Shown piece after piece: positions 1 to 25,204 of a DNA stretch of 64,000 bases (position 1 is the first letter of the stretch; the number at the start of each line of letters is the position of its first letter). The notes beneath the pieces were generated by a model that saw nothing but the letters and a program-made list of their open reading frames with translations, did not search any database and had not been told where the DNA came from. The DNA is from Bdellovibrionales bacterium (GTDB lineage Bacteria > Bdellovibrionota > Bdellovibrionia > Bdellovibrionales > UBA1609): assembly GCA_965219095.1 (NCBI GenBank), contig OZ244719.1:482142-546141 (forward strand). Direction: 5' to 3'. A program made the position numbers and the translations under genes.

Positions 1-204
1 ACAATGGCTTTAATGGCGACAAAAAGCCTCTCAGCTGTCCAAGCAAGTCTTGGGCATAAGGATCAAGCTATGACTCAAAGGTATGCAAAAGTGGTGGCTC
101 TCATTAACTCGGATATGGCAGAAAAAACAGCTCAGATGTATGAAATGAACTCTTTAGGTTCATCTCCATCACGACAGATCACGACGTCTTTACAGACAAA
201 ATGA
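1..204 (+). CDS. int: Tyrosine integrase, C-terminal end (partial, runs off the window)
   Basis: LGH..TQRY catalytic His/Tyr motif; nucleotide sequence identical to the 3' end of the integrase ending at 23923. Confidence 0.9.
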   Translation, partial: TMALMATKSLSAVQASLGHKDQAMTQRYAKVVALINSDMAEKTAQMYEMNSLGSSPSRQITTSLQTK

Positions 205-408
205 ACTTTAGGATCAAAAGGATACTGGTAGTTGAATTTTAAAATTTTTTAAAATTTAAAAAAAGAATTCTAGCAGGAACACTTGGAATGAAAAACTCAC
301 GACGGAAATCACGACTTCTCACTAAAATAGCTAAGATATCACTCATAAAGTAGAGCGTGAAAGAAGTTCTAGCAGTGGAAAGTTTAAGGGATTTTTTGAA
401 AGTAAAAA

Positions 409-440
409 TTAAAACCCTCTCTAAAAAAAGAGGGTTTTAA
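409..440. terminator. Bidirectional intrinsic terminator between integrase and pilin cassette 1
   Basis: ttaaaaccctct-ctaaaaaa-agagggttttaa hairpin with A/T tails. Confidence 0.8.
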
Positions 441-464
441 GAAAAGTTTTTTAAACTTAGAAAG

Positions 465-896
465 TTAATATGCTGTTAATATTTTGTCTTGCTTGATTTC
501 CCATTTCTGAACACTGGTTTGGCCTGAGTTCCCCTCTGCACAAGCTGTAAATTTCTGGGGATTCACACTATTATCTATTTTACATGCTGCTCTTGCAATA
601 GCTGAAGTTTTCGTGCCTACAGTATTTTCATGTGCCAGATCACTTGCTCCACCTGTCACACACCCTGACGGTAGTGTTGTAAGTGCAGTATTAAAGCCAA
701 TTGTGTAATGGGTTGCTCCATCAGGTTTATCAAAACCTATGATGTTAAGATTATGGCAATACCCTGTGCTTTCATACTGAAAAGCTTTTTCTGCTGTATA
801 AAGAGCCCCTAAGTTAGTTTTAGCTTCACCGCTTCGTGCTTTTTTTCTAAACCCATCGAATGCAGGAATGGCAACTGCTGCAAGAATTCCTATAAT
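465..896 (-). other. Leader-less type IVa pilin cassette 1 (143 codons, open to stop)
   Basis: Manual translation: IIGILAAVAIPAFDGFRKKARSGEAKTNLGALYTAEKAFQYESTGYCHNL...KFTACAEGN...WEIKQDKILTAY*. In-frame TAG two codons upstream; no start codon or G|FTLxE prepilin leader. Confidence 0.9.
784..895. repeat. Pilin-helix direct repeat copy 1 (putative att site)
   Basis: Near-identical to 18524-18635 and 24520-24631; 834-895 identical in all three; identity stops abruptly after ...gaattcctataa. Confidence 0.92.
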
Positions 897-1081
897 CGGC
901 TAAAAGAGATCTGCTATGTTGTTGGAATCAGTAAAAAATAAATGAATATAAATAACTTATCCATTACTGTAAGCACCTTGATTTTCCTGAAACTTCTCGA
1001 TAGTACCCACATTTTAATTATTGATCACCTACAGATCACACATAAAATTAAGGAAATAATTTATACATACTCATATGAATT

Positions 1082-1210
1082 ACCGCTCTATCCAAGCTTA
1101 AATTTCTCTTATAAGTTTTTCTTAGAGGGAAGATTTTATGGAAGAAAGAATTAATTTAAAAGAGAAAATACAGCTTTGTCGAGAGGAGAGTTTGAACAAA
1201 AAGCTTCATC
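1082..1210 (+). mobile_element. IS66 left-end/tnpA start remnant
   Basis: Similar to the reverse complement of about 50285-50410; a further remnant lies at about 8111-8175. Confidence 0.7.
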
Positions 1211-1272
1211 TTTGCTTCCTCCAAACTTGAAGTCCTTCTTCTTTTGTAAATTCTTTGCTATACCTGTTGGCG

Positions 1273-1899
1273 TTAGGTTTTCTGATCATTTTTTACCTTG
1301 CCATTAAGACCGACTTGTTGAAGAAATTTTTTCCAAATCAAAATAGATCGATCTATAAACTCCTTATGCTCATAAGAGTATTGTTTTTTTTCTGAATAGA
1401 AAGTGACTTTAATTACGTGGCAATCACGAGTATAATCGTATGCACGATAAAACCCTATTTTTTCGCTAAGAGATGGTTTGTTTAATTTTAGATGCTTTAA
1501 TCCATTTGCAATATCTCGACAAATTAAAAACTCTGGGAAGCAAAAAAGCATACAAGAATCTTTATTCAAGTCTTCACTTATAGATAAGTCAACATAATCC
1601 TTTAAATGGAAGCAAACTAAGACAAAGGCATGAAGATAGTCTATTATGTCTTCAATATTTTTATCATTAGCTATACCTAAATATTCAATTCGCCATTTCC
1701 ATCTTAATAAAGCCTTCCACTGAATTTTCCAATTATCTTTATCCTTACCGAAAGCCAAACCAACGTTGTGAAAGCCTGCCTCACCAGGTATCCAAACATC
1801 ATCTCTTGTATCAATTGATGTGATTGTATATGGTGGTTTATGACCTCCTTTTTCTAATTCTCTTACGATACTCTCAATATCTTTTTTGTTTTTTTCCAT
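1273..1899 (-). CDS. Hypothetical protein, possibly HEPN-like
   Basis: 208-aa ORF with helical C-terminal half FHLKDY...CRDIANGLKH (R..H motif reminiscent of HEPN RNases). Confidence 0.5.
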   Translation of the reverse strand: MEKNKKDIESIVRELEKGGHKPPYTITSIDTRDDVWIPGEAGFHNVGLAFGKDKDNWKIQWKALLRWKWRIEYLGIANDKNIEDIIDYLHAFVLVCFHLKDYVDLSISEDLNKDSCMLFCFPEFLICRDIANGLKHLKLNKPSLSEKIGFYRAYDYTRDCHVIKVTFYSEKKQYSYEHKEFIDRSILIWKKFLQQVGLNGKVKNDQKT

Positions 1900-2051
1900 T
1901 TAAAAAATTCTCATTTAAATATCTCAGAATTAACTTATTACTGCACTGGAATTTTAATTTTTTCTATTTTTTATTTAATTTTAGCTATTCTTTTTTCTGT
2001 ATATTGTCAATACAAGGGGCATTATGTTTTGTCATGAGGATTTTTTTGGTT

Positions 2052-2156
2052 ATCTTTTTTATGAAAGAACGTTAAGTTAGTTTCTTAACAGCCCTTGACT
2101 TCTACGAGGAGGATGTTTCTTAGATGCTTTTGCCCACAGATTCTCGGGAGGAGCCA
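2052..2156 (+). repeat. Chimeric IS66-end + ISL3-end repeat, copy 1
   Basis: About 105-bp direct repeat with 4743-4848. Confidence 0.75.
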
Positions 2157-2610
2157 AATAAATAAATATAAATAACTTATGCATTTCTGAAAGCGCCTTG
2201 ATTTTCCTGAAACTTCTTGATAGTACCTAAACTTTAATTATTGATTACCTACAGATCACACATAAAATTAAAGATATAATTTAATCCATATTTTCTTTCT
2301 TTTTACAACTTTGAGATAATAGTCCTGTTTTGTAGCCACTCTGTGTCACTATGTTTAGAATCTCTTATGATAATTAGGGTCATTTTAATCTTGTTGTACT
2401 TGGGGGGCAAGCAATCAATAAGGTAGCTTGTATGCAACGCAAAACAACCTTTTGGTAAATAAATGCTTAATTTTAGTATCACCTTAATTTTCATAGCTTG
2501 GATGTCATTGAAAATAACGCACATGAGAATAGATTTTTATGAGCCAAAATTTTTACTTTTGAAATAAGCATTGAAACTTTTACATAGATCAACCTAAAAT
2601 AAAAATAATT

Positions 2611-2859
2611 ATGCCTCAATTAAAATATAGAGATTTACCTTGGAATTTAAAGAGAAGAATAGATGCTTCAGGGCCTATGATGCAACCAAGGAAATCTGAA
2701 AATCCCACGGTAAATGGTATTTTAAAAAGACTAAAAACCTCTGAAGAACGAGCCTTACAAGCAAAAGCATCTGCCACCGCAAAACAAAAAAGAGATGTTA
2801 TTGATCTTATTGAAAGCTACTTAGGAGAACACAGTACATCAAGGTCTGCTGAACTTTAA
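2611..2859 (+). CDS. Small hypothetical protein
   Basis: 82-aa ORF ending 3 bp before the methylase start. Confidence 0.5.
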   Translation: MPQLKYRDLPWNLKRRIDASGPMMQPRKSENPTVNGILKRLKTSEERALQAKASATAKQKRDVIDLIESYLGEHSTSRSAEL

Positions 2860-2862
2860 AAA

Positions 2863-3180
2863 ATGGCGAAAAAGAAGAGAAAAAAGAAACCGGCTGTTTC
2901 AAAGCCAATTGAAATTTATAAACATAAGAGTAAAAGAAAAAACAATCCTCATGTTGGAGGAGTCACCTCTAAAAGAGAAAGTCCAAAAGTTAAAGCTAAA
3001 AAATATCAGTATGACTCTCATTTAGATCCGCTACTACAGTGGGCTGGTAAAGCTGAGCGGACTTCCTTTGAAGTGCCAAGTGTATCCCTTCATGTTCATG
3101 AAAAAATTGATCCAAGAAGCATTATTGAAACTGTAAGAAATAGAAATTCTATAGATTACGAGCAACTTTCTCTTTTTCAG
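2863..3180 (+). pseudogene. N-terminus of a type III R-M Mod-like adenine DNA methyltransferase, truncated by IS-derived DNA
   Basis: YDSHLDPLLQWAGK..VPSVSLHVHEKIDPRSIIE motif typical of this methylase N-terminus; sequence switches at about 3180 to a segment repeated at 24817-24905. Confidence 0.7.
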
Positions 3181-3282
3181 AGGATGTTCCATTTCTCGGT
3201 GGAATTATTAGAGGGCGATTTCATGTTTAAGCGACCTTTCTTTGTTTTGCAATCATTTTTTCTAAGTTTTCTTTAAAGTTTT

Positions 3283-4660
3283 GGCTCCTCCAGGGAATCT
3301 GTGGGTAAAAAGTAGCTAGAAATCCCCAAAAAAGCTCATATTAGCCAAAGCAAGAGTAAGATATCCTGTCTTGTATTTTTGAGTTCTTTAAGGCCTTACT
3401 GGCCTCTATCGCCGCTGGCGATTGAACTCAAAAACATTCATTTTATTTGCTGTATTACATTAAAATCTTAAAAAAGAAGCACCTACTTCCCAGATGCCTT
3501 AAAATGTTATTCAAAAAAAAAAAAACAAAGGAGGGAAGAGATGCTTTTGAAGACTATACTAAATGATTGTTTAAAATGGAAGTCTTTTGTGTATGGAGAC
3601 ATTTATTTTTCAAAAGATAGAAAGTCAATTAATGTTCCTATTAAGGCTCGTAAAAATGGCCAAGTTCTTTGTAATGTTTGTAAGAAGCCCTAGTGTATGA
3701 CACCAGTAAATCATCACGGGACTTTGAATCCCTTCCTATTTTAAGTTACAGGGTGTTCTTTGTTTATACTGTAAGAAGAGTCAATTGTCCTTGCTGTGGG
3801 GTAAAAGTTGAACATTTACCTTGGGCTGATGGTAAGAAGAGTTTAACGATCTTTTACATGAAGTACTTAGCTGACTGGTGTCGTCACCTATCTTGGAAAG
3901 AGGTTTCTTGTAAGTTTCAGGTCAGTTGGAATCAGGTCTATGCTTCAGTGGAGTGGGTTGTAGAGTATGGTTTAAAACAGAGGGTTTTAGAGGGGATATA
4001 TGCTATAGGAGTCGACGAGATACAATGGAAAAAGAACCATAAGTATCTCACCTTAGTCTATGAAATAAGCAAAGAAAGTGTTCGTTTGCTATGGATAGGA
4101 GAAAAAAGAACAGAGGAGAGTTTCAACAAGTTTTTTGATTTGCTAGGAGAGAAGTCAAAAGATATACAGTTTGTGTGTTCTGATATGTGGAAGCCCTATT
4201 TAAAAGTTATAAAGGAAAGGGCAAGTCAAGCTTTGAATATATTAGATCGCTTTCATATTGTAGCAAAACTCAATAAAGCTTTAGATGAAGTGAGAGCCTC
4301 AGAACATAGAAAAATGAAAGAAGATGGCTGTCAACCACTTTTAACAAAAGCTAGATGGCCTTTGTTAAAAAATGCAGAAAATTTAAAATCTTATGAGAAA
4401 GTAAAATTAAGGCATTTAATACAGTACAACTTAAAAAGTATCCGCTGTTATCTTTTAAAAGAAGACTTCCGACAGTTATGGACCTATGTTTCACCAACTT
4501 GGGCTGGGAAATTTATAGACAGTTGGACGAAACGAGTCATGCTTTCAAAAATTGAACCCTTAAAGAAAGAAGCAAAAACCATACGAAGACATAAAACTCT
4601 TATCCTTAATTACTTCAAAGCTAAAAAAACCTTCTCCTCAGGGATTGTAGAGGGTTTAAA
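3283..4660 (+). mobile_element. ISL3 family element; transposase has a premature stop (3691-3693) and 3' truncation
   Basis: ggctcctcc left end; ATG at 3541; GVDE / SDMW / LDRFH / GIVEG motifs. Confidence 0.9.
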
Positions 4661-4728
4661 TGTAATAGTCGCAACTTGATCTGACAGTTACCCTTTCTGG
4701 GTTGATAAAAAACTGTCTGTCAGTTTGC
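4661..4728 (-). mobile_element. IS481 right-end remnant
   Basis: Reverse-complement match to 62490-62554. Confidence 0.75.
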
Positions 4729-4742
4729 GTTCTGTTCAATCA

Positions 4743-4848
4743 TCTTTTTTATGAAAGAAAGAACGTAAGTTGGTTTCTTAACAGCCCTTGACTCCTACGA
4801 GGAGGATGTTTCTTAGATGCTTTTAACCACAGATTCTCGGGAGGAGCC
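4743..4848 (+). repeat. Chimeric IS66-end + ISL3-end repeat, copy 2
   Basis: Direct repeat of 2052-2156. Confidence 0.75.
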
Positions 4849-4855
4849 GATATTT

Positions 4856-6187
4856 TTATGAAGTTGAAGTTTCAGCCAAAGCATCAATCCAATTATTAAT
4901 ATATCTAGCTTTGCTTTGAATTACATGAGATTCAGCCAAACCTTTGATTTCTTTAAGTTGATTCACAAGTTTGTCAATGTCTTTTTTACGAACTTCCTCT
5001 CTTTCCTTTAGCATACATAACAAAAAGTGAAAGCGTGCCTTTTTTGCTGCAGCAGGAGTTTGTACCTCTCTATTTGATTTCTTACTTTTACTAGAACGAG
5101 TCTCTCCAAAGTTTTTAAAGTTATTAAGATCATCTTTGATTACACCCTTACATATTGCACAATCACAAATTTTTTGAAAAAAATCATGGTGAGTATTGAT
5201 ATGAAGATTTTCAAATAATAGCTCTATCTCAGGAATTCCAAATTTTCCATGCAATGGTGGAAAGTAATAATTTATAACTGGAGTCCCTCCCCCTAAAACA
5301 GGCATAATATTTTTTTTAGAACCATAGCCTACACCGTGAGAAACACTTGTCATGCCAAATTTAGATAGAAGGTAAGAGAAATACCCTCCATGCCTATTAA
5401 ATACTTCAAGCCCGTTTTCCTTATATTTTTCAACTAGTCTGCGAAATGAAGAAAGATAGTTAGCACTTCTTTCGCTTTCATCAAAGTCATTTATCCATAG
5501 ATAAACCCCTTTGAAACCATTTCCCAGCTTTAAAATGGCATTAATAAAATTAGAGTCTAATAAAAGATCATAATCGAAACAGAGACTTAGATATAAATCA
5601 TTAGAGTATGAAAGAGAATCTTGACGGATTTTTTGATATATATTAATCCAGAGATCTTTTCGCTTTTTATCTATAAAAAAATAAGGCGTGAAAATTATTT
5701 TTGGCATTGAGAGGTCATTTGCAAAAGAAGCTGTTTCTTCGTCTTCTCGTAAGATATTTTTAATTCGATTATTTTGATACTCAATTACAGATTTACAAAT
5801 ATCTTTTCGTTTTATATCGCCATCTAAGTCCTTCAAAGTAATGGCCTTACTATTTTCAACAGCATCACTAAAGCTATTACCTAATTTTAAAGCTAATTTT
5901 TTATATGAAGCTTTAATTTCAAATCCTTTTTTAGTTTTAGATTTTAACCATTGAAGATCAGAAATGAGTTGCCCATCATGCGAATAGTATTCGCCAAAAG
6001 AGTAGGTCATAGGATCAATAAGATAATCTCTATTATTTTCTTTGCAATGCTTTATTATTAAACTTGCAACGGCATTAGGAGTCATCTCTATTAAGTTTCC
6101 GCTAAAGGTAACCCCATCGAAAAATCGAAGAATCTTATCAAAATAATCTTTTTCTGAGTGACTACCATATCTTAAAAAAATATTCAT
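4856..6187 (-). CDS. Hypothetical 443-aa protein, putative TIM-barrel with CxCxxC..H zinc site (TGT-like or Sce7725/beta-like)
   Basis: CDCAIC...RFHF motif; alternating beta/alpha pattern; last gene of an overlapping four-gene operon. Confidence 0.6.
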   Translation of the reverse strand: MNIFLRYGSHSEKDYFDKILRFFDGVTFSGNLIEMTPNAVASLIIKHCKENNRDYLIDPMTYSFGEYYSHDGQLISDLQWLKSKTKKGFEIKASYKKLALKLGNSFSDAVENSKAITLKDLDGDIKRKDICKSVIEYQNNRIKNILREDEETASFANDLSMPKIIFTPYFFIDKKRKDLWINIYQKIRQDSLSYSNDLYLSLCFDYDLLLDSNFINAILKLGNGFKGVYLWINDFDESERSANYLSSFRRLVEKYKENGLEVFNRHGGYFSYLLSKFGMTSVSHGVGYGSKKNIMPVLGGGTPVINYYFPPLHGKFGIPEIELLFENLHINTHHDFFQKICDCAICKGVIKDDLNNFKNFGETRSSKSKKSNREVQTPAAAKKARFHFLLCMLKEREEVRKKDIDKLVNQLKEIKGLAESHVIQSKARYINNWIDALAETSTS

Positions 6188-6600
6188 TTTTTTCTTATTC
6201 CTTGAGCTTTCTTAATAGATTCAGTTTTATATCTCATATTTATCACTTTAGATTTTGAAGGTTTCAATGTTATTCTGCAGTGTCCAGATGAATCAACAGC
6301 AATGACACCCACTCCAAATGGTTGAAGTTCTTGCAAAATTTTCTTGTTAATTTTCGTTTTAGGCATCGCTATGTAAACATAGTCAGAACAAAGCTGGTAT
6401 ATAAGTGCTTGTTGTAGAGCTTTTTTCCATTTTATTAATTTTAATTCAACAGACACTGCTTCCATATCCTTAGAGTAAGTAAATAAATCTATATTATACC
6501 TATAGAAACTCAACTCTTTACAAGGAGGATTAACATATTTGTTTTTTAAAAAACGAAAAACAGGTGTTAAAAGCTGAGCTTCCTTACTAAAATCCAACAT
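6184..6600 (-). CDS. Small PD-(D/E)XK nuclease-fold protein
   Basis: E...IDL...VELK...ALQQAxxY...DYVYIAMP pattern. Confidence 0.7.
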   Translation of the reverse strand: MLDFSKEAQLLTPVFRFLKNKYVNPPCKELSFYRYNIDLFTYSKDMEAVSVELKLIKWKKALQQALIYQLCSDYVYIAMPKTKINKKILQELQPFGVGVIAVDSSGHCRITLKPSKSKVINMRYKTESIKKAQGIRKK

Positions 6601-7174
6601 TTTTTTCCTCCATATCTCTTAATTTATTCTCTAAATAGAGTATGTAAACCATTGAACATATTCCGATCATAAAAAATACAGCACTAAAAATAAGAGGATA
6701 ACATAATATATATCTATCCAGATTATTTACATTTTTCTCGTAGAGTGCCATTAAACACAGAATAATGAATTCTAGACCAGCAAGAATTAAGGATAGATAT
6801 TTTAGAAGGCGTGAATAAATCTTCCACTTCCAGTATGCAGTTTTTATTTCACTATACTGTTTAAAGAAAGTATTTTTTTTCTCTAAATAATCATCTAGCC
6901 AATTCTTAAAGGCTTCACTCTCAGCAGGATTTTCCATGCCTTCTATGTACTTAAGACCCTCATCCTTTTCAACATATACATTAGGAATAGGTTTTAATAG
7001 CTTGGTAAGTTCTTCTGCTATTTCACCTGTTATTGAGTTTTTTATATTTAATATCGAACTATAAATGTATTCAAAAAAATCTTTTTTTCTTTCACTAAAT
7101 TTAAAAAAATAGATAAGATAGGCTGTTAAAAGAAAACCATGAATCCATGTAATAGTTCCATAACTCAAAATCAA
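6587..7174 (-). CDS. Membrane protein (about 3 TM helices)
   Basis: One N-terminal and two C-terminal hydrophobic segments. Confidence 0.7.
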   Translation of the reverse strand: MILSYGTITWIHGFLLTAYLIYFFKFSERKKDFFEYIYSSILNIKNSITGEIAEELTKLLKPIPNVYVEKDEGLKYIEGMENPAESEAFKNWLDDYLEKKNTFFKQYSEIKTAYWKWKIYSRLLKYLSLILAGLEFIILCLMALYEKNVNNLDRYILCYPLIFSAVFFMIGICSMVYILYLENKLRDMEEKNVGF

Positions 7175-7782
7175 AACCCTCTTTTTAAAACTTGCTTTTT
7201 AACCTCAGATTCAGTTGTCATACCAGGGTATTTCTTATAAACATAGTAAAGCAAATCACGAAGAGAATATTTACTAAAATTAGATTTAATTTTTCTAATC
7301 TTATTAAGAGTCGGTTGATGCTCTTCAGAGTTAAGCATGCTTTGAATTTTACTTCTGCCTTTTTCCGTAAGTTTAAATCTTTTTTCAACATAACTATCAG
7401 AGTAAGAACTATCATCTTCCTTTCCAATTAAATCTTCAAATTTTATTTCAACTGATTCAAACGAAGTACTTTCACCCACAACTTCACTCTTGATATAACC
7501 AAGGTTTTCTAAAAACTCTAAGGAATCATAAATCTTTGATGAAAAAGGCCCTGCTTTATAGGGTTCAAACTTAAAGCCATCATCTAGGGCTTGAACTTCT
7601 TCTTCAGTTTCTAATAAATAGAGAAATTTTTGAAGACGAGTTGCCCCACCTAGTTTACCTTGAAGACTTGAACCCTCAGCATCTAATCCAATCATGCACA
7701 AAATTAAAGATTTTGTGTTCATACTCATAAGTTCAGACCCCTCATAACTAAACTGTATCCCATAATGCAGAATAGGCAACAA
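7171..7782 (-). CDS. Winged-helix protein of the Panacea/DUF4065/YwgA antitoxin-like type
   Basis: TRLQKFLYLL...F.PYKAGPFS..IYDSLE.L...GYI, FKLTEKG, YVYKKYP; true start may be a downstream Met. Confidence 0.65.
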   Translation of the reverse strand: MLPILHYGIQFSYEGSELMSMNTKSLILCMIGLDAEGSSLQGKLGGATRLQKFLYLLETEEEVQALDDGFKFEPYKAGPFSSKIYDSLEFLENLGYIKSEVVGESTSFESVEIKFEDLIGKEDDSSYSDSYVEKRFKLTEKGRSKIQSMLNSEEHQPTLNKIRKIKSNFSKYSLRDLLYYVYKKYPGMTTESEVKKQVLKRGF

Positions 7783-8510
7783 ATTAAACCGGTGACTGAT
7801 GATAGAAGCTATGCAAGTAGCCCAGCCAAATCTAACAACAGTTAGTACACTGTAAAGCTATAAAATCAATATACTTTGAACTCCAAATCTAATGGCCGAA
7901 CCTACAAATGTATAAATTATGTGTTGTTTTGCGTTAGGACTTCCTATGATAAAGCTAAAGGTTGCTATCACAAGACCAATCACCGAAATAAGGGGGCAAA
8001 ATCACATTGTGAGCCTTGATTTGATATCGATAAGGGAAGATTCAAGGCTTGCAAGCCGGCTTTTCAAAGAAGCCATAAAATAACTCCTGCTAGAAACACC
8101 GTAAAAAAAAGTCGGTTGTCTGCCCTATCCAAGCTTAAATTTCTCTTATAATTTTTCTTAGAGGGGGATTTTAGAAGAAATCCTAAAGGAGGCTCTGGGG
8201 ACTTTAAGAGAAAATTGACTATCCGCAGAAACAGGAGAAGTCCACTTTTGCTACTGAGCAACGATTTGCGACGCTTATTGTTGATCTTGAGGTATGGATG
8301 GAATCAAAAGTTCTTTGGATTAGTGAGTTAAAGGCTTTATTAGAAAAATTCGGAAATCCTAGGCTGTAGCTAATTTTATTGGTGCTAGTGAAGCGTTTGT
8401 CCGGAAAAACGTCCGAATTTCGGACATTAAAAAGCAAAAAAAATAATTTCAAAAAAATATTAAAAAAATCCCTAATTATTGCTATGCTTTCCTAAAAAGA
8501 AGGAGACAAA

Positions 8511-8845: not shown

Positions 8846-8855
8846 AAAGAGGGTT

Positions 8856-10669: not shown

Positions 10670-10671
10670 AT

Positions 10672-14349: not shown

Positions 14350-14375
14350 AAGAAAAAAGTTTCAATATACTTTTT

Positions 14376-15971: not shown

Positions 15972-15977
15972 GAAGAC

Positions 15978-16210: not shown

Positions 16211-16370
16211 AGTAGGTTGGTGGAAAAGGAAAGGAAAGAAAATTTTTTTAAAGCTAGTCTTAAAAAAATTTTCTGTTTGTTAAATCTGCGGACGAACTTT
16301 TATAAGCTCTCCGCACTATCCTCTCTTGAAGCTCAAGAAAGGATGTAAATCAATAAGGAAAGGAGTAGAA

Positions 16371-16598
16371 ATGAAACTAAAAACTACAATTTATGACGCA
16401 CTCTCAGTCAGAGCTTATAAAGACTCTCAGGGAAACGAAAAAGTGGACTACCAAAGAATAGGTGTAGCCTTTGGTTTAAAGAACAAAAACGGTTTTTCTT
16501 TGAAGCTCACAAGCTTGCCTGTCTCAGGGGAGCTTGTGGTTATAGAAAGAATACCAAAAAAAGAGCAGAAAAATGATACAGAAGAAATGCCCTTTTAA
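16371..16598 (+). CDS. Small protein with acidic C-terminal tail, possibly ssDNA-binding
   Basis: aggag RBS; RIGVAF..K.GFSLKL..LP; ends DTEEMPF (SSB-like tail); followed by hairpin 16617-16637. Confidence 0.6.
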   Translation: MKLKTTIYDALSVRAYKDSQGNEKVDYQRIGVAFGLKNKNGFSLKLTSLPVSGELVVIERIPKKEQKNDTEEMPF

Positions 16599-16663
16599 AG
16601 GCTTAGAATACCAAATGAGGGAGCTTTAAGCTCCCTCGTTATATTTTGAAAGGAGAAATAAAA

Positions 16664-16924
16664 ATGAATAAAAAAGAATTGAAACCAATCAAGAAAAGTA
16701 GTAGTTTAGAGAACACTATTCGCCCTCAAAAAAAGGGCCTGTTCTTTGACAATTTAATAACTATTGAGGAGCTTTCAGAAAATTTAGGTTTATCTAAGAA
16801 GACTTTACAAAATTGGGTTTCTTTAAGGAAAATCCCTTATGTAAAAATAGGCCGAAAGGTTTATTTTAGGTCTTCTCGCTTACAGCAGTGGATTGAACGA
16901 AAGGAGTTCAAATCATGTCTGTAA
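16664..16924 (+). CDS. xis: Excisionase/HTH_17 recombination directionality factor
   Basis: LITIEELSENLGLSKKTLQNWV...IPYVKIGRKVYF; overlaps int start. Confidence 0.85.
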   Translation: MNKKELKPIKKSSSLENTIRPQKKGLFFDNLITIEELSENLGLSKKTLQNWVSLRKIPYVKIGRKVYFRSSRLQQWIERKEFKSCL

Positions 16925-18117
16925 CTAAAATTAAAAGAAAAAAAAAGAACGTCTATCAAGCTCAAGTGTATGTCAGAGGAGTGAGGCTTTCGAGTAAAGT
17001 TTTTGAAAACAAAACTCAAGCTTACATTTGGCATGATAGAGAAAAAGATCGCCTTGAAAAAGGTGAAACTATAGAAGAAAAAGAACTTAAAGAATTGCTT
17101 TTTTGCGATTGTGTAGAAAAGTACATCAAAGAGTATCTGCCTAAACTGAGAGCTTCCAGCCAGAGAAAAATCTTATTGAATCTGAAAAATCTTTCAGTTA
17201 ACAGCCCCTTAAATAAAGTCAAGATGTTAGACTTAAAGGCAAAGGAGATAAGCCTTTGGATTTCTTGGTTTCAAAAGAAAACTAAGAAGTGTAGGCAAAG
17301 ACAGAGTTTTAAAACAGAGTTTAGGCGACTTGTAGCTGTTCTAAACTGGTGGAGAAATTATGTTGACCCAAATTTTGTTGTTCCTGTAGTGAAAATGCAT
17401 AGAGATATTTGCTATGAGACAACTCAAAAACTAAGACGACCTGACTACTTTGCTAGACCAGAAGAAATACAGCTTTGGCTTCAAAAGCTTCAGAAAATAT
17501 CTAACCCTGTTTATTATAGACTGGCAAAGTTTATGATTTTAACAGGAGCTAGAGTGAGTGAAGCTTGTGGGCTTTTATGGAAAGAAGTTGTCTTTGAAGA
17601 AAAATTTGTACGTGTGGTAAGGACAGCTGATTGGGGAGGTAACAAAATAACTCTCTGTGAAGACACTAAAACGAAAGCATCTAACAGGCTTTTGGTTCTT
17701 CCAGAGAGACTTGTGGAGTTGTTAAGGGTTATGAAAAGTGAGTCTCCCGAAAATCCCTTAGTCTTTCATTCAAGAGAAGGTGAAATGGTGTCTTATACAA
17801 GCATTCGCTGGGCTTTTGATAAGTCCTTTAAGGCCTGCAATCTTCCTTGGAGAGGGACTCATATTTGCCGTCATACTTATGCCACAATGGCACTTATGGC
17901 GACAAAAAGTCTTTCCGCTGTGCAAGCAAGTCTTGGGCATACAGATCAAGCTATGACTCAAAGGTATGCTAAAGCGGTAGCTTTAATAAATTCTGATATG
18001 GCAGAAAGAACGGCTAGCATGTACGAATCGAAATCACTTACAAAATCACTTACGCACCCTCAAAAGACCCTAAATGAGTCCTCATTAAGGATAAGGGAAA
18101 GTGATTCTAGCAGTTGA
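16915..18117 (+). CDS. int: Tyrosine integrase, intact (unit B)
   Basis: TGARVSE, KT, HICRH, LGH, TQRY catalytic set. Confidence 0.95.
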   Translation: MSVTKIKRKKKNVYQAQVYVRGVRLSSKVFENKTQAYIWHDREKDRLEKGETIEEKELKELLFCDCVEKYIKEYLPKLRASSQRKILLNLKNLSVNSPLNKVKMLDLKAKEISLWISWFQKKTKKCRQRQSFKTEFRRLVAVLNWWRNYVDPNFVVPVVKMHRDICYETTQKLRRPDYFARPEEIQLWLQKLQKISNPVYYRLAKFMILTGARVSEACGLLWKEVVFEEKFVRVVRTADWGGNKITLCEDTKTKASNRLLVLPERLVELLRVMKSESPENPLVFHSREGEMVSYTSIRWAFDKSFKACNLPWRGTHICRHTYATMALMATKSLSAVQASLGHTDQAMTQRYAKAVALINSDMAERTASMYESKSLTKSLTHPQKTLNESSLRIRESDSSS

Positions 18118-18195
18118 ATTGTAAAGATTTAAAACCACTTCAAAAAGCAAAATGAATGGGTTTTTTTAGCTTGGATTTTGTGAGTTAAGAAAAGA

Positions 18196-18224
18196 AAAAC
18201 CCCTCCAAAAAAGGGAGGGGTTTT
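18196..18224. terminator. Intrinsic terminator after pilin cassette 2
   Basis: aaaacccctcc-aaaaaag-ggaggggtttt. Confidence 0.8.
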
Positions 18225-18243
18225 AAAGTAGAGTTTAAGTATT

Positions 18244-18633
18244 TTATGGTAGTACACTCAAACTTTTCTCATGATTAATTTGCCAGTTGGAATTTGTCGA
18301 ATCCCCGTTTCCTTCAGCACAAGCTATGAATTCATCACCTGCAGAGTTTAGCACACAGGTTGCCCCTATAATCTTAGCAACTACCGTAGCGGCAGTTGAT
18401 GGGTGACATTTATCCGTACAAGCAGTTTCTTTAAATCCAACAGCGTAGTGGCGTGTTCCAGAAGGTTCCTCAAATCCTATATTAGCTAGGACGTCTGAAT
18501 ATTTATCACCTTCATAAAGGTAGGCTTTTTCTGCTGTATAAAGAGCCCCTAAGTTAGTTTTAGCTTCACTACTTCGTGCTTTTTTTCTAAACCCATCGAA
18601 TGCAGGAATGGCAACTGCTGCAAGAATTCCTAT
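18244..18633 (-). other. Leader-less type IVa pilin cassette 2
   Basis: IGILAAVAIPAFDGFRKKARSSEAKTNLGALYTAEKAYLYEGD...FIACAEGN...WQINHEKSLSVLP*; upstream in-frame residues are not a prepilin leader. Confidence 0.9.
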
Positions 18634-18635
18634 AA
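18524..18635. repeat. Pilin-helix direct repeat copy 2 (putative att site)
   Basis: Near-identical to 784-895. Confidence 0.92.
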
Positions 18636-19023
18636 ATTGATTTGTAAACTTTTGTAAGTTTGCAGAATCACTAAAAAACAAAAAGAAAATAATAAATTAA
18701 CCTACCCATCTATTCCCGAATGTTAAGACTTTTCCCCTACATTGAACCTAGTTGATCACGACAAAATTCCGTACACGGACGCATATAAAAATCACGATAG
18801 TTCTAAAACAAACTTTAATTTCTTTTGTACTTACTTTTGAAAGCCAGGATTTAATTGTTGTATTATCTCTAGCGACATCCTTTCTGGTGCTTTTTTATCT
18901 GGTACTTTCTTATTTTCCTGTTACGTTACAGTAGGTTAGTGAGGGATATCGCAGTGAGGCCATTTGAAAGAAATTCTCTTAAAATCACTTGAAAAGAAAG
19001 TTTTTTTATATTATTATAATTGT

Positions 19024-19776
19024 ATGTCTTTAAAAAAACTCAATCATTCAATTCCTAAAGCTGTATGGGCTTCGATTCAAGCTGTTGCTAAAGAAACTCA
19101 AGAACTAGTAAAGTCTCAAAAAGAGAATGCCAAAGCTCAAAAAGAGACTGATCGCCAACTCAAAGAATCTCAAAAAGAAATCGCTAAAGCTCAAAAAGAG
19201 ACTGATCGCCAACTCAAAGAATCTCAAAAAGAAATCGCTAAAGCTCAAAAAGAAATCGCTAAAGCTCAAAAAGAGACTGATCGCCAACTCAAAGAATCTC
19301 AAAAAGATACTAATCAACGTATAGCACAACTCAACGAACTTTTCACAGGTCAATGGGGGAAGCTTATGGAAGCCTTTGTAAAAGGTGATTTAGTTAAACT
19401 TCTTCAAGAAAGGAACATCGATGTTAATGATATATGCTCTAATAGAGAGAAGACCTTTGAAGGTCAAAAATATGAGTTTGATATCATAGCCATTAATGGA
19501 AAAGAAACAGTAGCTGTGGAAGTAAAGACTACTTTACGGCTGAAAGACTTAACTTATTTTTTAAAAAAGTTAAAAACCTTTAAAAAGATGTTTCCTGAAT
19601 ATGAAGATAAGAAAATATACGGAGCTATGGCTTTTATAAAAGTGAATGAAGGAGCTGATAGGAGAGCTGAAAAAGATGGTTTATTTGTGATTCAAGCTGT
19701 AGGAGATAGTGGAAGCATTATTAATGCCAAACACTTTAAACCAAAGATCTTTTGTAATAACAATTCCAAAAAATAA
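19024..19776 (+). CDS. Coiled-coil tandem-repeat protein with C-terminal PD-(D/E)XK-like domain (DUF3782-like)
   Basis: KAQKETDRQLKESQKEIA repeats; QWGKLME...EFDIIA...VEVKTTL. Confidence 0.8.
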   Translation: MSLKKLNHSIPKAVWASIQAVAKETQELVKSQKENAKAQKETDRQLKESQKEIAKAQKETDRQLKESQKEIAKAQKEIAKAQKETDRQLKESQKDTNQRIAQLNELFTGQWGKLMEAFVKGDLVKLLQERNIDVNDICSNREKTFEGQKYEFDIIAINGKETVAVEVKTTLRLKDLTYFLKKLKTFKKMFPEYEDKKIYGAMAFIKVNEGADRRAEKDGLFVIQAVGDSGSIINAKHFKPKIFCNNNSKK

Positions 19777-19999
19777 TTCGATATTCTTTTGTAGCATAAG
19801 GTTCTGGAAGAGATCTCCAAAAGGCTTAAGTTAACAGTAAATCAGTTTCTTAACTGAGTTACAGCTTTCTAAGCTAACGTAAGGTGGCAGAAGGGGGTTA
19901 AGCTTATTACAAACGTCAAATTAAAAAAACAAATTCTTTTCTATGGAAAAAGCCTCAAAAGGTACAAACTCAGTTTCTTTTTGCTCCACTTAAATAAAA

Positions 20000-20160
20000 C
20001 TCTTAAAAGGCTTATTTCAAAGCAAAGAAAAGTCCTCAAAATGTTCTTTTAGGATGGTTTCACTGAAGAACAAATAGGACGAAAGCTCAGCCACTCTTGA
20101 AGCACAATTAAAAACATAAAAGCTCAAGCATTCAAGTCACTTAGGAAGAATTTAGAGGTC
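20000..20160 (+). pseudogene. Decayed sigma-70 region 4-like HTH
   Basis: KQRKVLKMFF / DGFTEEQIGRKLSHS*STIKNIKAQAFKSLRKNL with frameshift and stop. Confidence 0.45.
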
Positions 20161-20613
20161 AACATGGGGACACTGTCCCCATGTATAGGGGCAAAAGAAA
20201 ATTTTTATGCTCCTTTTTCCAGTTATAAACCCAAGTTTAGAATCAAGATGGAAGAAGAAAATCAACGTCACTCTGATAAACCTCCAAAGGGTTTTTATAG
20301 TTTGTTTGAAGATTTAAAACAAGCTTTCACATCACTTTGACCGATCGTAAAGAGGGGAAGCTCCAATTTGAAAAGTTAAATGGAGCTTTTTTAAAAGATG
20401 TGAGTTGTGTCTAATCAAAGGGGTAAAAGTGTGTCTAGAATTGGACAAAACCAAAGAGATGCCAAAGCTTAAAAGCACTTAAGATCATTTCATTTTTTCT
20501 TATTCAGAAAAAATGTTAAGAAAGTGTCTGACCTCCCTAAAAGCTTTTTTTCATTCTATCTTAAGATTTTCTTATTGGGGACTATTTTCTGCTTTTAACT
20601 ACTTATAAAAAAT

Positions 20614-20803
20614 GGCTCCTCCAGGGAATCTGTGGGTAAAAAGTAGTAGAAATCCCCCAAAAGAGCTCATATTAATCAAAGCAAGAGTAAGACATCCTGT
20701 CTTGTATTTTTGAGTTCTTTGAGGCCTTACTGACCTCTATCACCTCCGGTGATTGAACTCAAAAACATTCATTTTATTTGCTGTATTACATTAAAATCTT
20801 AAA
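20614..20803 (+). mobile_element. ISL3 left-end remnant
   Basis: Matches 3283-3475. Confidence 0.8.
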
Positions 20804-21013
20804 GAAAGAGAAGAAAAGGTGCGGAATGAAAAAATAAGAATCCTGAGGGTTCCTAGAAAGACCTTTTTTAAATTAAAAGAGCAGTTAGGTAATATAAAGT
20901 AAAGATATTGATCTGTTTTCTTTAAATTTCTCTAAAAACCAAGCTATTGTTTTCATATATGCACATTTTTAAGAATCTGTTTGAAAGAAATACACACTTG
21001 AATGCTGTTTGAA

Positions 21014-21109
21014 TGTTGCAGATCTGTTACAAATTTGCATATTTGTTACAAATGTAACAGATCTGTTACAAATGTATCGGATTCAGCAAATTTGTAACAA
21101 ATATGCAAC
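21014..21109. repeat. Cluster of direct and inverted TGTTACAAAT repeats
   Basis: Three TGTTACAAAT copies plus inverted TGTAACA copies within 96 bp. Confidence 0.75.
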
Positions 21110-21212
21110 TTTTCAAAAAAAAACAAGAAAAACCTTTTTTTTCATTTAAAACTTTATTGTAGCAAAAGGTTTTATAAAAGAGTCCTTTTTATAAAACCAA
21201 AAAGAAAGGAGT

Positions 21213-21945
21213 ATGTATGAAGCAAAAAACAAAAAAAGAGTTCTTATGAAGATAGAAGCACCTCAAAACCTTGTAAGCTTAAAAGCTCAAATCCAGACCC
21301 TTACTTCTCCAGAATTTAGAAACTCCTCTATACATGAAGAAAAAGAAATCGATCTCCTGGATGTTATGAAAAAAAATCAAATAGCCTATTTCCAGTTGAA
21401 TTTAAACAGCTATGGTTTTTTAGGTAAGAAAATCGGTAAAATTCTAGTTCAAGATCTAAAGGTTATAAGCTCTCAGATTCAATCAGGACAAGTGGATTTT
21501 AAGCCTTTACTTTTAGGGGTCTTGATTGATGAATTTGGATCTTTTGCTACACCTGATTTTTCAGATTTTTTAAAGCAAGTAAGATCTGCTGGTACAGGAG
21601 TTCACTTATTTTGCCAAGGCTTAGCTGATTTAAATGTTGTAAGTCAGAGTTTTAGCAATCAAGTGTTGGGAAGTGCGGCCACTAAAATCATACTTCGACA
21701 AGATGTGAAGAGGACTCTCGAAAAATGGGCTTTTACAGCTGTCACTAGGGGCACTGTAGGTAGGAGTTTTCAGGTCAGTGAACGCATTCTGGGGAACTTA
21801 AAAAAACAGGCTTAGGGAATCTTTTGGAGACCAAAAAAATGAAGATCGAACATGATGTTTTTAAGAGCTTAAAAGTAGGTCAGGCTGTACTCATTGATAA
21901 GATCAAAACCTCACAAGATTTGTTTCAAATTTTTAGCTTAAAGGA
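21213..21945 (+). pseudogene. Type IV coupling protein C-terminal remnant
   Basis: Paralogous to the C-terminal half of 14376-15971 (AYFQLN, IDEFGSFAT, GVHLFCQGLADL); no Walker A; frameshift near 21800. Confidence 0.85.
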
Positions 21946-22014
21946 GTGAGCTTTATGAGTAGTTTTAAAAAAATTCTGGAATTTTCTTATAGTGCTAAAA
22001 ACATGTCTTGCATG

Positions 22015-22178
22015 CACCCCCTTTCCTTTTCCCTTTGTCTTTATACACCCAACTCTGCTAAAACCTTCGGTTTTCACCGTGACCACCCTCTCCCGCTCAT
22101 ACTTTTTTTAGTATGGGAGAGGGTGGTCACGGTACCACAGAGTTGGGTGTATAGATGTGGGAAGAGGAAAGGGGGGTG
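22015..22178. repeat. Long nested inverted repeat downstream of T4CP remnant
   Basis: tatacacccaactctg/cagagttgggtgtata and accgtgaccaccctctccc/gggagagggtggtcacggt arms plus outer pyrimidine/purine arms. Confidence 0.85.
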
Positions 22179-22499
22179 TGAGAGGAGGAAAAAATAGAGA
22201 AAATTTTTAGAACTTTTAAATTAAAAATTTTCTCTATCAGGTTAAAAAATTTTTGTTTTTTTAAGTTTAACTTGAGTTTTTTTAATGGCCGAGAAAGGAG
22301 TAAAAAAAAAGGTCAAAAAACAAATAACAAATCAATCATGAAAGGAGTAGCATAATGCAAAGCAAGAAAAGTAAAATTTACGACACTTTTTTGAGTGCGT
22401 AAATTCATCATATTCAGTGAGGAAAAGTCAGAGTTCTTAGAAGAAACCAAATGAGGAAGTTTTTTAAGCTTCTTCGCCATATTTTGAAAGGAGAAAAAA

Positions 22500-22757
22500 A
22501 TGGATAAAAAAGAATTGAAACCAATTAAAAAAGGTAGTAGTTTAGAGAACACTATTCGCCCTCAAAAAAAGGGCCTGTTCTTTGACAATTTAATAACCGT
22601 AGAGGAATTAGCCTTAGCGTTTGGGCTGTCTCCTAGAACGATTAAAAATTGGGTGAGTTTAAGACAAATCCCCTTTATTCAGTTCAGAAGAAGGACTTAC
22701 TTTCTTAAAGACAGTATCCATAGATGGCTTCAACAAAAGGAGAAATCATGTCAATAA
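22500..22757 (+). CDS. xis: Excisionase/HTH_17
   Basis: LITVEELALAFGLSPRTIKNWV; first ~33 aa nearly identical to unit B xis. Confidence 0.85.
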   Translation: MDKKELKPIKKGSSLENTIRPQKKGLFFDNLITVEELALAFGLSPRTIKNWVSLRQIPFIQFRRRTYFLKDSIHRWLQQKEKSCQ

Positions 22758-23923
22758 CCAAACGTAAAAGGAAAAATAAAATAACATATCAAGCAGAAAT
22801 TTATGTAAGAGGAATTCGTCTGAAAGCAAAAAGCTTTCAAACAAAAACAGAAGCCTGTATATGGCACGATAAGGAAAAAAAACGTCTTCAAGAAGGAAGA
22901 GTTTCTCTTCAAGAAGAGTTAAGAGAACTTTTCTTTGAAGACTGTGTGAGAAGGTATCTTAAAGAGTATGTTCCTACTTTAAGAGATTCCAGTCAAAAGA
23001 AGATTCAACTTCTTTGCGAGAGGTTTTTTCTACAAAGTCCTTTAGCAAAAACAAAAATGTCAGATATAGACCATGTCAGTATTGACACTTGGATTGACTG
23101 GCTTTTTAGAAGCTTTAAAAACACTGTCAACCGCCATTCTTTTAGAATAGAGTTAAGGCGTCTTGGCTCTGTTCTTCACTGGTGGAGAAACTACCTTGAT
23201 CCAAGCTTTAGCTTTCCTATTGTTCGTGGTCATAGAAATCGGTGTTATGTGAAGAAGCGAGAATCTAAGGTGAAAAGGCCAGATTACTTTGCTAAACCTG
23301 AAGAGGTGAGGGCTTGGCTTAACGAACTTAAGAAGATTCAAAACCCTGTTTATTACCGTTTAGCTCAGTTTATGATTTTAACAGGAGCGAGAGTAAGTGA
23401 AGCTTGTGGACTTATGTGGAGTGAAATTGATTTTAAGAATCGTTTTGCAAGAGTTGTTAGAACAGCTGACTGGTCTTCTGAAAAACCTCAAATTCTAGAA
23501 ACCACAAAGACTAAGACTTCTGTAAGAGTTTTAACTCTTCCTGAAAAGCTCATAGAGCTTTTGTATGAAATGAAAGAGGAATCTAATAATCCTCTTGTGT
23601 TTTACTCTTCAGAAGGAAAAGTCGTTCCTTACACTACCATTCGTTGGGCCTTTGATAAGTCTTTTAAGACCTGCAATCTTCCTTGGAGAGGAACTCATAT
23701 TTGTCGTCATACTTATGCCACAATGGCTTTAATGGCGACAAAAAGCCTCTCAGCTGTCCAAGCAAGTCTTGGGCATAAGGATCAAGCTATGACTCAAAGG
23801 TATGCAAAAGTGGTGGCTCTCATTAACTCGGATATGGCAGAAAAAACAGCTCAGATGTATGAAATGAACTCTTTAGGTTCATCTCCATCACGACAGATCA
23901 CGACGTCTTTACAGACAAAATGA
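22748..23923 (+). CDS. int: Tyrosine integrase, intact (unit A)
   Basis: TGARVSE, HICRH, LGH, TQRY; start chosen by ggag RBS and alignment to unit B int. Confidence 0.95.
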   Translation: MSITKRKRKNKITYQAEIYVRGIRLKAKSFQTKTEACIWHDKEKKRLQEGRVSLQEELRELFFEDCVRRYLKEYVPTLRDSSQKKIQLLCERFFLQSPLAKTKMSDIDHVSIDTWIDWLFRSFKNTVNRHSFRIELRRLGSVLHWWRNYLDPSFSFPIVRGHRNRCYVKKRESKVKRPDYFAKPEEVRAWLNELKKIQNPVYYRLAQFMILTGARVSEACGLMWSEIDFKNRFARVVRTADWSSEKPQILETTKTKTSVRVLTLPEKLIELLYEMKEESNNPLVFYSSEGKVVPYTTIRWAFDKSFKTCNLPWRGTHICRHTYATMALMATKSLSAVQASLGHKDQAMTQRYAKVVALINSDMAEKTAQMYEMNSLGSSPSRQITTSLQTK

Positions 23924-24141
23924 ACTTTAGGATCAAAAGGATACTGGTAGTTGAATTTTAAAATTTTTTAAAATTTAAAAAAAAGAATTCTAGCAGGAAC
24001 ACTTGGAATGAAAAACTCACGACGGAAATCACGACTTCTCACTAAAATAGCTAAGATATCACTCATAAAGTAGAGCGTGAAAGAAGTTCTAGCAGTGGAA
24101 AGTTTAAGAGTTTTGAAGTAAAAAAAGACCTACTATAAATA

Positions 24142-24168
24142 AACCCCCCTTTTTCTAAAAAGGGGGTT
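24142..24168. terminator. Intrinsic terminator after pilin cassette 3
   Basis: C-run/T-run and A-run/G-run hairpin (aacccccctttttctaaaaagggggtt). Confidence 0.75.
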
Positions 24169-24185
24169 CTAGAAAGGTTTTCAGA

Positions 24186-24629
24186 TTAAGTACAGTCAGC
24201 TCCTGCGCCATTTGATTTTAAAATTTTAAGATTATCCATCTGCCAATTTGTTCCAACACTATCAAGCTTATTGCTTGTGTGATTTCCAAAAGCTCCAGCT
24301 TTGAAGGTTGTAGTTGTGTGTTCACATGCAGGTCCAGGAGCCCTTTTAGTGCCGGTAGCATGAGTAGAGTCGTGTTTTGCAGCAGCAGCCGCTGTTGCTG
24401 GGCATGTTCCCACTACAGCACTCGCCTTAAATCCGATAGAAAAATATTGCGTTCCCTCGGGTTTTCCAAAACCTATCAAATCCAAGTTATTACAATAATC
24501 GCCTTGTTCATAAAAGTACGCTTTTTCTGCTGTATAAAGAGCCCCTAAGTTAGTTTTAGCTTCACCGTCTCGTGCTTTTTTTCTAAACCCATCGAATGCA
24601 GGAATGGCAACTGCTGCAAGAATTCCTAT
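24186..24629 (-). other. Leader-less type IVa pilin cassette 3
   Basis: IGILAAVAIPAFDGFRKKARDGEAKTNLGALYTAEKAYFYEQGDYCNNLDLIGFGKPEG...WQMDNLKILKSNGAGADCT*; in-frame TGA nine codons upstream. Confidence 0.9.
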
Positions 24630-24631
24630 AA
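24520..24631. repeat. Pilin-helix direct repeat copy 3 (putative att site)
   Basis: Near-identical to 784-895 and 18524-18635. Confidence 0.92.
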
Positions 24632-25200: not shown

Positions 25201-25204
25201 GAAG

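Follow-up and report, generated by a model that had tools for sequence, protein, structure and literature searches.

A probable insertion hotspot in the major type IVa pilin gene of a Bdellovibrionales bacterium, occupied by integrative elements with leaderless pilin heads

Type IV pili are exposed organelles and common phage receptors, and in Bdellovibrio they are reported to be necessary for prey entry. Mobile elements that integrate site-specifically are known from protein-coding genes, among them phage 21 and e14 in icd, SXT in prfC, and the dusA islands. Here, we describe a pilin locus of a Bdellovibrionales bacterium whose genome consists of two contigs, C1 and C2. The window, i.e. the whole stretch of 64,000 nucleotides that was analyzed (C1:482142-546141), holds the outer half of a ~95-kb hotspot in which copies of a pilin core recur next to tyrosine integrase genes. 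We consider it likely that elements inserted here into the sole major type IVa pilin gene, pilA, where they integrate at the core and replace the globular, exposed part of the protein, hereafter called the head.

In Neisseria, a single expressed pilin gene, pilE, coexists with silent pilS cassettes that have neither promoter nor leader, and the variable regions are mosaics. Our locus likewise comprises one expressed gene and several leaderless, presumably silent cassettes with a common conserved 5' block and mosaic heads; unlike in Neisseria, the cassettes are the ends of integrase-bearing mobile elements 6-25 kb apart, and no conversion into the expressed copy is observed. Displacement of older modules is known from the orphan C-terminal toxin/immunity arrays of cdiA and rhs, in which incoming modules push the earlier ones downstream, where they are kept as start-less silent cassettes that recombination could reactivate. 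The pilin heads appear to be displaced downstream in the same manner, but the cdiA/rhs arrays concern another protein family and have neither an integrase nor a mobile element for each cassette. For the IncI shufflon, the accounts in PMC5430464 and PMC9045228 describe how Rci inverts compact segments between short inverted sites in the gene of the minor pilin, pilV. A tyrosine recombinase combined with alternative C-terminal parts of a type IV pilin is common to both systems. However, the locus is set apart from a shufflon by the cores in the window, which are repeated directly at distances of 6-18 kb, by the separate integrase and cargo of every unit, and by its target, a major pilin.

Islands in tRNA and tmRNA genes, as portrayed in PMC4383910, restore their target, and tandem members each have their own integrase and target fragment. 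The elements studied here share with them the tyrosine integrase, a short attachment (att) core within the target, the carried end of the displaced gene, and one integrase and one fragment per member. They differ in that the target is the major pilin gene, that the restored part is a strongly divergent, surface-exposed head, and that seven members with nine heads occupy one locus in two opposed arrays. Because the restored part is a divergent head and not a faithful copy, integration would change the product. Pneumococcal group 2b prophages, according to PMC7600539, integrate between nucleotides 58 and 59 of comGC, the gene of the major competence pilin, and competence is lost. There, too, the integrase site lies in the 5' part of a type IV pilin-like gene (here around codons 24-28); those prophages disrupt the gene, whereas the elements of our locus bring an in-frame replacement of its 3' part. 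Integrative elements that are inserted in pilA and bring replacement heads were not found described in the open-access full-text literature. New is the combination: site-specific mobile elements that target the major pilin gene, supply a divergent exposed head in frame, and build up an archive of several cassettes.

The pilin core occurs in ten copies genome-wide; nine of them lie inside C1:411346-506772 (~95 kb) and one on C2. At the locus, five copies are on the plus strand (C1 411346, 423989, 449479, 468283 and 473893) and four on the minus strand (C1 474747, 482912, 500652 and 506661), the last three being the cassettes of the window. A leader is present only at the first copy; the other eight are leaderless fragments, in direct orientation within each array. 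The two oppositely oriented arrays meet tail to tail at two heads without integrase, H5 and H6, which are spaced by 88 bp (C1:474341/474429). There are nine heads and seven full integrase genes for seven elements, i.e. n + 1 heads per array. H5 and H6 alone have the motif LFTAQKAFFYE, and the seven element-borne heads have LYTAE(K/R)A. Most simply, H5 and H6 would represent two ancestral convergent pilA genes, each of which later collected elements. A single inversion of a once-uniform array at a look-alike site was considered and rejected; it leaves the tail-to-tail pair unexplained. A transaldolase gene borders the locus at one end; at the other lie bamB-, TPR- and amino-acid-dehydrogenase-like genes. 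In two relatives (G008 and G016), the flanking chromosomal proteins have no match beside pilA, so that these relatives show neither an empty site nor a convergent pilA pair. The tenth core copy, at C2:2315419-2317655, is a frameshifted, decayed relic in which the core start AGGAATTC stands behind unrelated DNA and which adjoins an integrase fragment; from its sequence, this relic is the opposite junction of an element inserted at a secondary site.

The first core copy belongs to a complete prepilin gene at C1:411277-411777, 71 kb before the window and on the strand opposite to the window cassettes. Its N-terminus reads MKKIQKIKKQKG|FSLIELMVVVAI-IGILAAV..., with G-1, F+1 and E+5, i.e. a class III leader followed by a hydrophobic helix. 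The product matches N_methyl (Pfam: PF07963; E 1e-10), and its best solved relative by sequence match is the type IV major pilin PilA (E 3e-17). Among the heads, H8, H3 and H6 pass the cut-off of Pilin_PilA (Pfam: PF14245); the matches of H1, H2 and H9 stay below it. An AlphaFold2 model of PilA, built from an alignment of eight rows, was unusable and is not used here (mean predicted local distance difference test score 43; predicted template modelling score 0.27). A motif scan of the genome yielded no second PilA-like leader-bearing gene; the other hits are pseudopilin-like and minor-pilin-like. The genes of the pilus machinery (PilB/PilT-like ATPases, prepilin peptidase and secretins) are open. 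A homolog search with PilA returned no relative above 53% identity outside the source genome. A first-pass annotation, made from the window alone, had placed the att core in pilA and had named as counter-evidence the lack of any leader-bearing pilA with the core in the genome or in close relatives. The gene at C1:411277-411777 has precisely this core behind its leader and bears the placement out.

Within the window, the order integrase (plus strand), terminator, leaderless pilin cassette (minus strand) recurs three times; this layout, recognized in the first pass, is confirmed by open reading frames, Pfam and folding. Cassette 1 (465..896, head H7) comprises 142 codons from IGILAA to the stop, cassette 2 (18244..18636, head H8) 129 codons and cassette 3 (24186..24632, head H9) 147 codons. 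The terminator behind cassette 1 (405..464, minus strand) is a hairpin with U-run that is common to the cassette and the convergent integrase (-18.9 kcal/mol, z -3.5). Those of cassettes 2 and 3 lie at 18185-18243 and 24125-24185; the folding energies of the three range from -17.4 to -21.1 kcal/mol (z-scores -3.5, -4.0 and -1.8). Each of the three cassettes is an open frame from mature residue 12-13 to a stop of its own, contains four Cys and has no leader. Their similarity begins at one common base before TTATAGG (the IGIL codons), and divergence sets in after about 112-126 bp. The shared blocks (771-896, 18511-18636 and 24507-24632) are 94-100% alike, and a 41-mer of the block is exact in all three window copies, with 0 matches in 100 shuffles. 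The putative att core TTATAGGAATTCTT would correspond to 882..895, 18622-18635 and 24618-24631 on the minus strand in cassettes 1, 2 and 3, respectively. As noted in the first pass, an excisionase-like gene precedes the integrase in the two complete units: HTH_17 genes (Pfam) of AlpA/Xis type are located on the plus strand at 16646..16924 (element E8) and 22500..22757 (element E9). The three heads diverge, and the protein of cassette 1 is identical to the expressed head H1, so that it is no further variant.

The stretch leader-core-H1-int-xis (C1 411341-415066) is 99.7% identical, in inverted orientation, to arm-core-H7-int-xis (C1 483043-479317) over 3.7 kb. The H7 module has an element arm in place of the leader, and the H1 module sits behind the chromosomal leader. 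Since one module stands behind the leader as well as behind an element arm, the head travels with the integrase and is apparently fused to the leader on integration, as the first pass had suggested. Judged from this comparison, the placement of H1 and H7 is the outcome expected from an integrating element whose attachment site, attP, lies before a leaderless pilin part. We rejected an att site located between the head and the integrase, as it would leave to chance both the border between leader and core and the identity of leader-H1-int with arm-H7-int.

Three related types of arm (a, b and c) can be distinguished in front of the cores. Orphan element arms occur at nine other sites in the genome, with no pilin core behind them and with unrelated DNA following. 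Six of these nine continue with 12-13 of the 14 core bases TTATAGGAATTCTT, a level at which 0.01% of random 20-nucleotide windows reach 12; the remaining three match 8-9 of 14. On these matches, the orphan-arm sites are junctions of insertions at secondary sites. It would follow that the recombination site measures ~14 bp and lies at the very start of the shared block, and that the remaining ~100 bp of identity are helix-coding pilin DNA carried by the element. The 14-bp core encodes Ile-Ile-Gly-Ile-Leu. Among viral contigs, a 34-mer of the core has 0 matches.

Taken together, the anatomy of the locus, its leader-bearing copy, the linkage of head and integrase, the junctions at secondary sites and the mosaic heads described below lead us to the following model. 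A family of integrative elements would have accreted at pilA, each member with an integrase and an HTH_17 gene, most with a full or truncated ATPase, and several with anti-phage cargo. The attP would consist of the element arm joined to the ~14 bp TTATAGGAATTCTT, directly before a promoterless and leaderless pilin 3' part, in which the remainder of helix alpha-1 is followed by the globular head and by a terminator that also serves the convergent integrase gene. On integration, the incoming head would come to stand in frame behind the chromosomal promoter, the leader and the initial 11-12 residues of the mature pilin, and the previous head would be displaced downstream and become a silent cassette. 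Seven elements would have integrated in this way, in two arrays converging on the two integrase-less heads; the first array, which still has the leader, would express the head of element E1, and the window array would have lost its leader and be silent. The in-frame exchange itself probably occurred as an event. It may also be active today, and it may confer a benefit, be it target repair, conversion of the pilus type or a reservoir for recombination. If a single integration replaces the exposed head of the sole major pilin, gene transfer would directly reset the surface identity of the cell. Druantia, a type IIG restriction enzyme and a ubiquitin-like operon are further cargo of these elements, which would couple a change of receptor with intracellular defence on one vehicle. 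The residue of repeated site-specific integration would, furthermore, be a possible route by which Neisseria-like silent pilin archives originate.

The window array has no leader of its own. Upstream of its top core, from 24633 onward, we find an insertion sequence (IS)-like repeat and then IS66 and ISL3 fragments. The repeat (24634..24817, plus strand) is a truncated copy that abuts the core where a leader is expected. At least nine copies of it exist, 98% alike; the one in the window is cut at the core junction, and eight of eight other copies run on with ATAGTA.... Most of these others read ATAGTAACCC, resembling ATAGGAAT of the core. The second leader was probably lost by an integrase-mediated event at this look-alike site, which would explain why the border coincides with the edge of the core. 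The reciprocal product was sought in the genome and not found, as is expected for a deletion. Because the array is without a leader, cassettes 1-3 would be silent. According to the first-pass annotation, excision by Xis/Int would expose the next head; this does not apply to the window array, at whose top the truncated repeat takes the place of a leader, and a switching system operating in this array in its present state is unlikely. In one IS-like repeat, the ATAGTA is a recurrent insertion point, occupied by another IS (C2:374159/376096).

The heads differ between integrase modules that are at least 99% identical. When H8 is compared with H2, identity drops to 28-66% in the region ~200-520 nucleotides from the start of the core, past which it is again 98-100%; H9 and H1 exhibit the same pattern of drop and return, and H8 and H3 differ mainly in one patch of ~70 nucleotides. 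As there is no att site between head and integrase, Int cannot reassort the heads. The reassortment must therefore be due to homologous recombination or gene conversion among the cassettes, whether in this genome or in donor populations, and the heads behave as exchangeable cassettes between two conserved anchors. Homologous recombination had been set aside in the first pass; the mosaic heads on near-identical modules show that it shaped the cassettes.

Relatives of the integrase were found within a narrow taxonomic range. Of 60 related genomes searched, 6 contain homologs at E 1e-20 or better. A species-level genome collection provides 21 loci, all from metagenome-assembled genomes of Bdellovibrionales, Bdellovibrionaceae, Oligoflexia or Oligoflexales; relatives at 41-48% identity are found only in Bdellovibrionales/Oligoflexia records, and seven metagenome contigs hold relatives at 41-46%. 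In the search of genome contigs, a single integrase query gave nothing and an alignment query gave the loci; in a protein atlas, only generic integrase clusters matched. A pilin-like gene is present in the flank of 12 of the 42 scanned loci. These correspond to ten distinct places, because two places were fetched twice, and two of the ten also contain leaderless cassettes. At the other 30 loci, no pilin gene was detected within 1.5-4 kb. Gene neighborhoods thus indicate that the integrase clade is repeatedly tied to pilin genes. Leaderless pilins next to integrase homologs, which the first pass proposed to look for, exist at the two places with such cassettes, and all the pilin neighbors elsewhere are arranged otherwise than here. 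The particular design of a leaderless head convergent with the integrase on a cargo-bearing element was not found beyond the source genome in the 42 loci.

Two of these other arrangements deserve description. In G016, a relative with a genome of 1.5 Mb, four of seven integrase copies have a leader-bearing pilin paralog directly upstream on the same strand. The pilin copies (loci L029-L033, e.g. L031:1002-3243 and L032:4436-6376) agree in the promoter and the 5' part of the coding DNA but differ further on; short stubs of the pilin N-terminus are present as well (e.g. L033:5004-5168). Records of two other Bdellovibrionales (L134:2641-5894 and L135:365-6464) contain a leader-bearing pilin (minus strand), an integrase (plus) and a leaderless pilin (plus), with inverted repeats of 187-195 nucleotides that start inside the helix codons and with a conserved palindrome-bearing arm between the integrase and the leaderless copy; L135 has an additional leaderless copy in direct orientation. 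This geometry fits an invertible segment of promoter, leader and integrase that could serve two outward-facing heads.

Read support for the locus is available from four runs of one study (word shares 0.83, 0.68, 0.66 and 0.24), all in the form of Logan k-mer contigs of metagenomes. Contigs of run X1 match window positions 4796-14380, i.e. 9.6 kb of element E8, with 0 differences, and the integrase and cassette regions are covered. Between 4701 and 24700, the core and the IS copies are the places where the run contigs end. Their 12 listed joints (e.g. 18130 to 18507, 24108 to 24520, and 23863 back to 18130) fit paralogous units with other heads and link no head to the leader.

Several points weigh against integration with exchange of heads. 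One of the two arrays, that of the window, has no leader, and cassette 1 merely duplicates a head that is already expressed. No excised circle, empty chromosomal attachment site (attB) or alternative leader-head junction is seen, the search having covered only contigs that break off in repeated sequence. No relative is close enough to show an empty site and with it the origin of the mirror arrangement. Homologous integrases in other genomes adjoin pilin genes in other orientations, and these are mostly leader-bearing pilins. Several elements are decayed or are IS-mediated hybrids (E9; E1 and E7 with a truncated ATPase; E7 as a hybrid around IS66), and the genome contains many copies of several IS types; an accumulation under weak selection would look alike. 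The locus would then be a passive graveyard, in which pilA is targeted for its conserved helix-coding stretch, the 3' end is carried only for repair, the cassettes are neutral debris, and the variation has no function. We regard this as a possibility with some weight, though a doubtful one. Target repair, a displaced fragment and tandem arrays are ordinary for islands as PMC4383910 presents them; a genome crowded with IS copies, decayed or hybrid elements and an entire array without leader are all in keeping with it. Moreover, the integrase modules are at least 99% alike and the insertions hence recent, so that open cassettes are no sign of selection. What neutral decay does not account for are heads only ~45-60% identical over ~300-400 nucleotides between units whose flanks are 98-100% identical, together with the ~70-nucleotide patch between H8 and H3. 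Such sharp differences point to repeated cassette exchange or diversifying selection and not to plain co-inheritance, and the integrase clade adjoins pilin genes in several other genomes.

The mosaic heads could also mean that the cassettes donate to the expressed pilA by RecA-type gene conversion, as in a pilS-like archive that the integrase only builds; recombination would be anchored by ~100 bp of conserved helix-coding DNA before the variable part and by the conserved C-terminal and terminator sequence after it. In favor of such an archive are mosaic borders that fall sharply where the conserved block ends and close to the terminator, the missing att site between head and integrase, by which Int cannot reassort, and the resemblance of cassettes without leader or promoter to silent pilin loci. 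However, the exchanges may predate integration and have occurred in donor populations, and no conversion into the leader-bearing copy is seen, its head being identical to that of E7 and continuous with an identical integrase; we remain inclined to doubt this reading. As the arrays are inverted relative to each other, any head of the window array would come to lie in frame behind the leader through one inversion, and an integrase that recombines the leader-proximal core (plus strand) with any of the four inverted cores could place H6-H9 behind the leader like a shufflon. The integrase between a leader-bearing pilin and an inverted leaderless pilin in L134 and L135 speaks for such a mechanism. 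Still, such a switch is improbable at our locus: convergent ancestral genes explain the orientation, with H5 and H6 sharing a private signature and having no integrases; the sites would be 63-95 kb apart; each cassette is on a mobile element of its own with its own integrase, unlike in a shufflon; and no inverted isoform is observable in k-mer contigs that end at repeats. Misjoined repeats could in principle create repeated cores and mirror arrays, given the number of repeats (the core, near-identical modules of 3.7-5 kb and IS copies). We consider such an assembly artefact extremely improbable, for each head and each cargo block is unique and consistently flanked, the H5/H6 junction lies in unique sequence, and the independent short-read contigs of run X1 reproduce E8 without a difference. 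Integration at pilA with replacement of the head thus remains our preferred explanation. Beyond it, we tentatively suggest, as an idea that is rather unlikely as a whole, a recombinase clade confined to Bdellovibrionales/Oligoflexia that is specialized on the helix-coding part of pilin genes and exchanges exposed heads in several ways: here through defence islands that convert the pilus type and leave a nine-cassette archive redeployable by excision, inversion or homologous recombination, and in relatives with small genomes through a compact, possibly flipping two-head unit. If so, conversion of the pilus type would be one of the means against phages or competitors that predatory bacteria acquire with mobile elements.

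The seven elements between successive cores measure 5.6-25.5 kb, and each has a full integrase beside the head and an HTH_17 excisionase-like gene. The integrases match PF00589 at E 2e-20 to 3e-21; R213, K252, H316, R319, H342 and Y351, which we take to be the catalytic set R-K-H-R-H-Y, are invariant in five of five aligned sequences. Relative to the E8 integrase, three types can be distinguished, with three copies at 99-100%, three at 64% and one at 63% identity. A full TraG/TrwB/HerA/FtsK-like ATPase is encoded on E2 and E8; E3 has a copy that a transposase gene interrupts, E1, E7 and E9 have truncated copies, and none was detected on E4 by Pfam scans. The same scans of the element proteins turned up no relaxase and no type IV secretion family; since no type IV secretion genes are seen, the elements would be at most mobilizable.

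Element E8 (~17.7 kb; 897..18636) extends from the arm beside cassette 1 through cassette 2. It contains an ISL3 transposase, a four-gene operon without Pfam hits, an operon with pentapeptide and ubiquitin-like E1/E2/JAB genes, DUF4423, the coupling ATPase (14376..15971, plus strand, 531 amino acids), the excisionase-like gene, and the integrase (16915..18117, plus strand, 400 amino acids; PF00589), of which two more copies with 99-100% identity lie at C1:424604 and C1:450024. Element E9 (~6.0 kb; 18637..24632) is decayed; a repeat-rich PDDEXK/Csx1-like gene and IS-related fragments are followed by its excisionase-like gene, integrase and cassette 3, and a truncated TraG-D_C gene is located at 21213-21815. 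Its integrase (22724..23923, plus strand, 399 amino acids; PF00589) is 64% identical to that of E8 and has ~99.6% DNA identity to those of E1 and E7. The 3' end of the E7 integrase opens the window (1..204, plus strand; whole gene C1:481146-482345, 399 amino acids), and positions 1-264 are 100% identical to 23720-23983. E7 itself is a hybrid in which an IS66 (C1:477783-479317 versus C1:415208-416741 in E1) joins a left part of 3.7 kb, equal to E1, to a right part of 4.6 kb, equal to the end of E2; this IS66 is oriented oppositely to the IS66 of E1 with respect to the shared module. Matches of ISL3-type, IS66-type and shorter IS-like repeats are listed by the hundreds genome-wide (an example in the window is 24634-26651).

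Concerning the cargo, the E8 operon at 8856-12766 encodes a pentapeptide-repeat protein, Multi_ubiq, Prok-E2_E, a ThiF/JAB E1-like protein (PADLOC E1-E2 models) and DUF6527, and looks like a ubiquitin-like conjugation defence system. The four co-directional genes without Pfam hits (4856-7782; 443, 138, 195 and 203 amino acids) include one weak PADLOC candidate, PDC-M19A (E 1.6e-10). In other elements of the arrays (C1:431018-441710, loci L012/L013, and L014:4443-11158), Druantia genes DruA (E 1.7e-169) and DruD (E 3e-89) lie beside open reading frames of 948 and 1839 amino acids; the same elements have a type IIG restriction-methylase adjoining an HKD-Snf2 helicase, and Schlafen/AlbA_2 proteins. 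The gene at the far end of each element (18964-19776 in the window) contains tandem repeats of 54/75 nucleotides that code for a stretch rich in Lys and Glu; the part behind it weakly resembles Hjc/PDDEXK or Csx1. This gene has further copies at C1:448286, 472807 and 475189.

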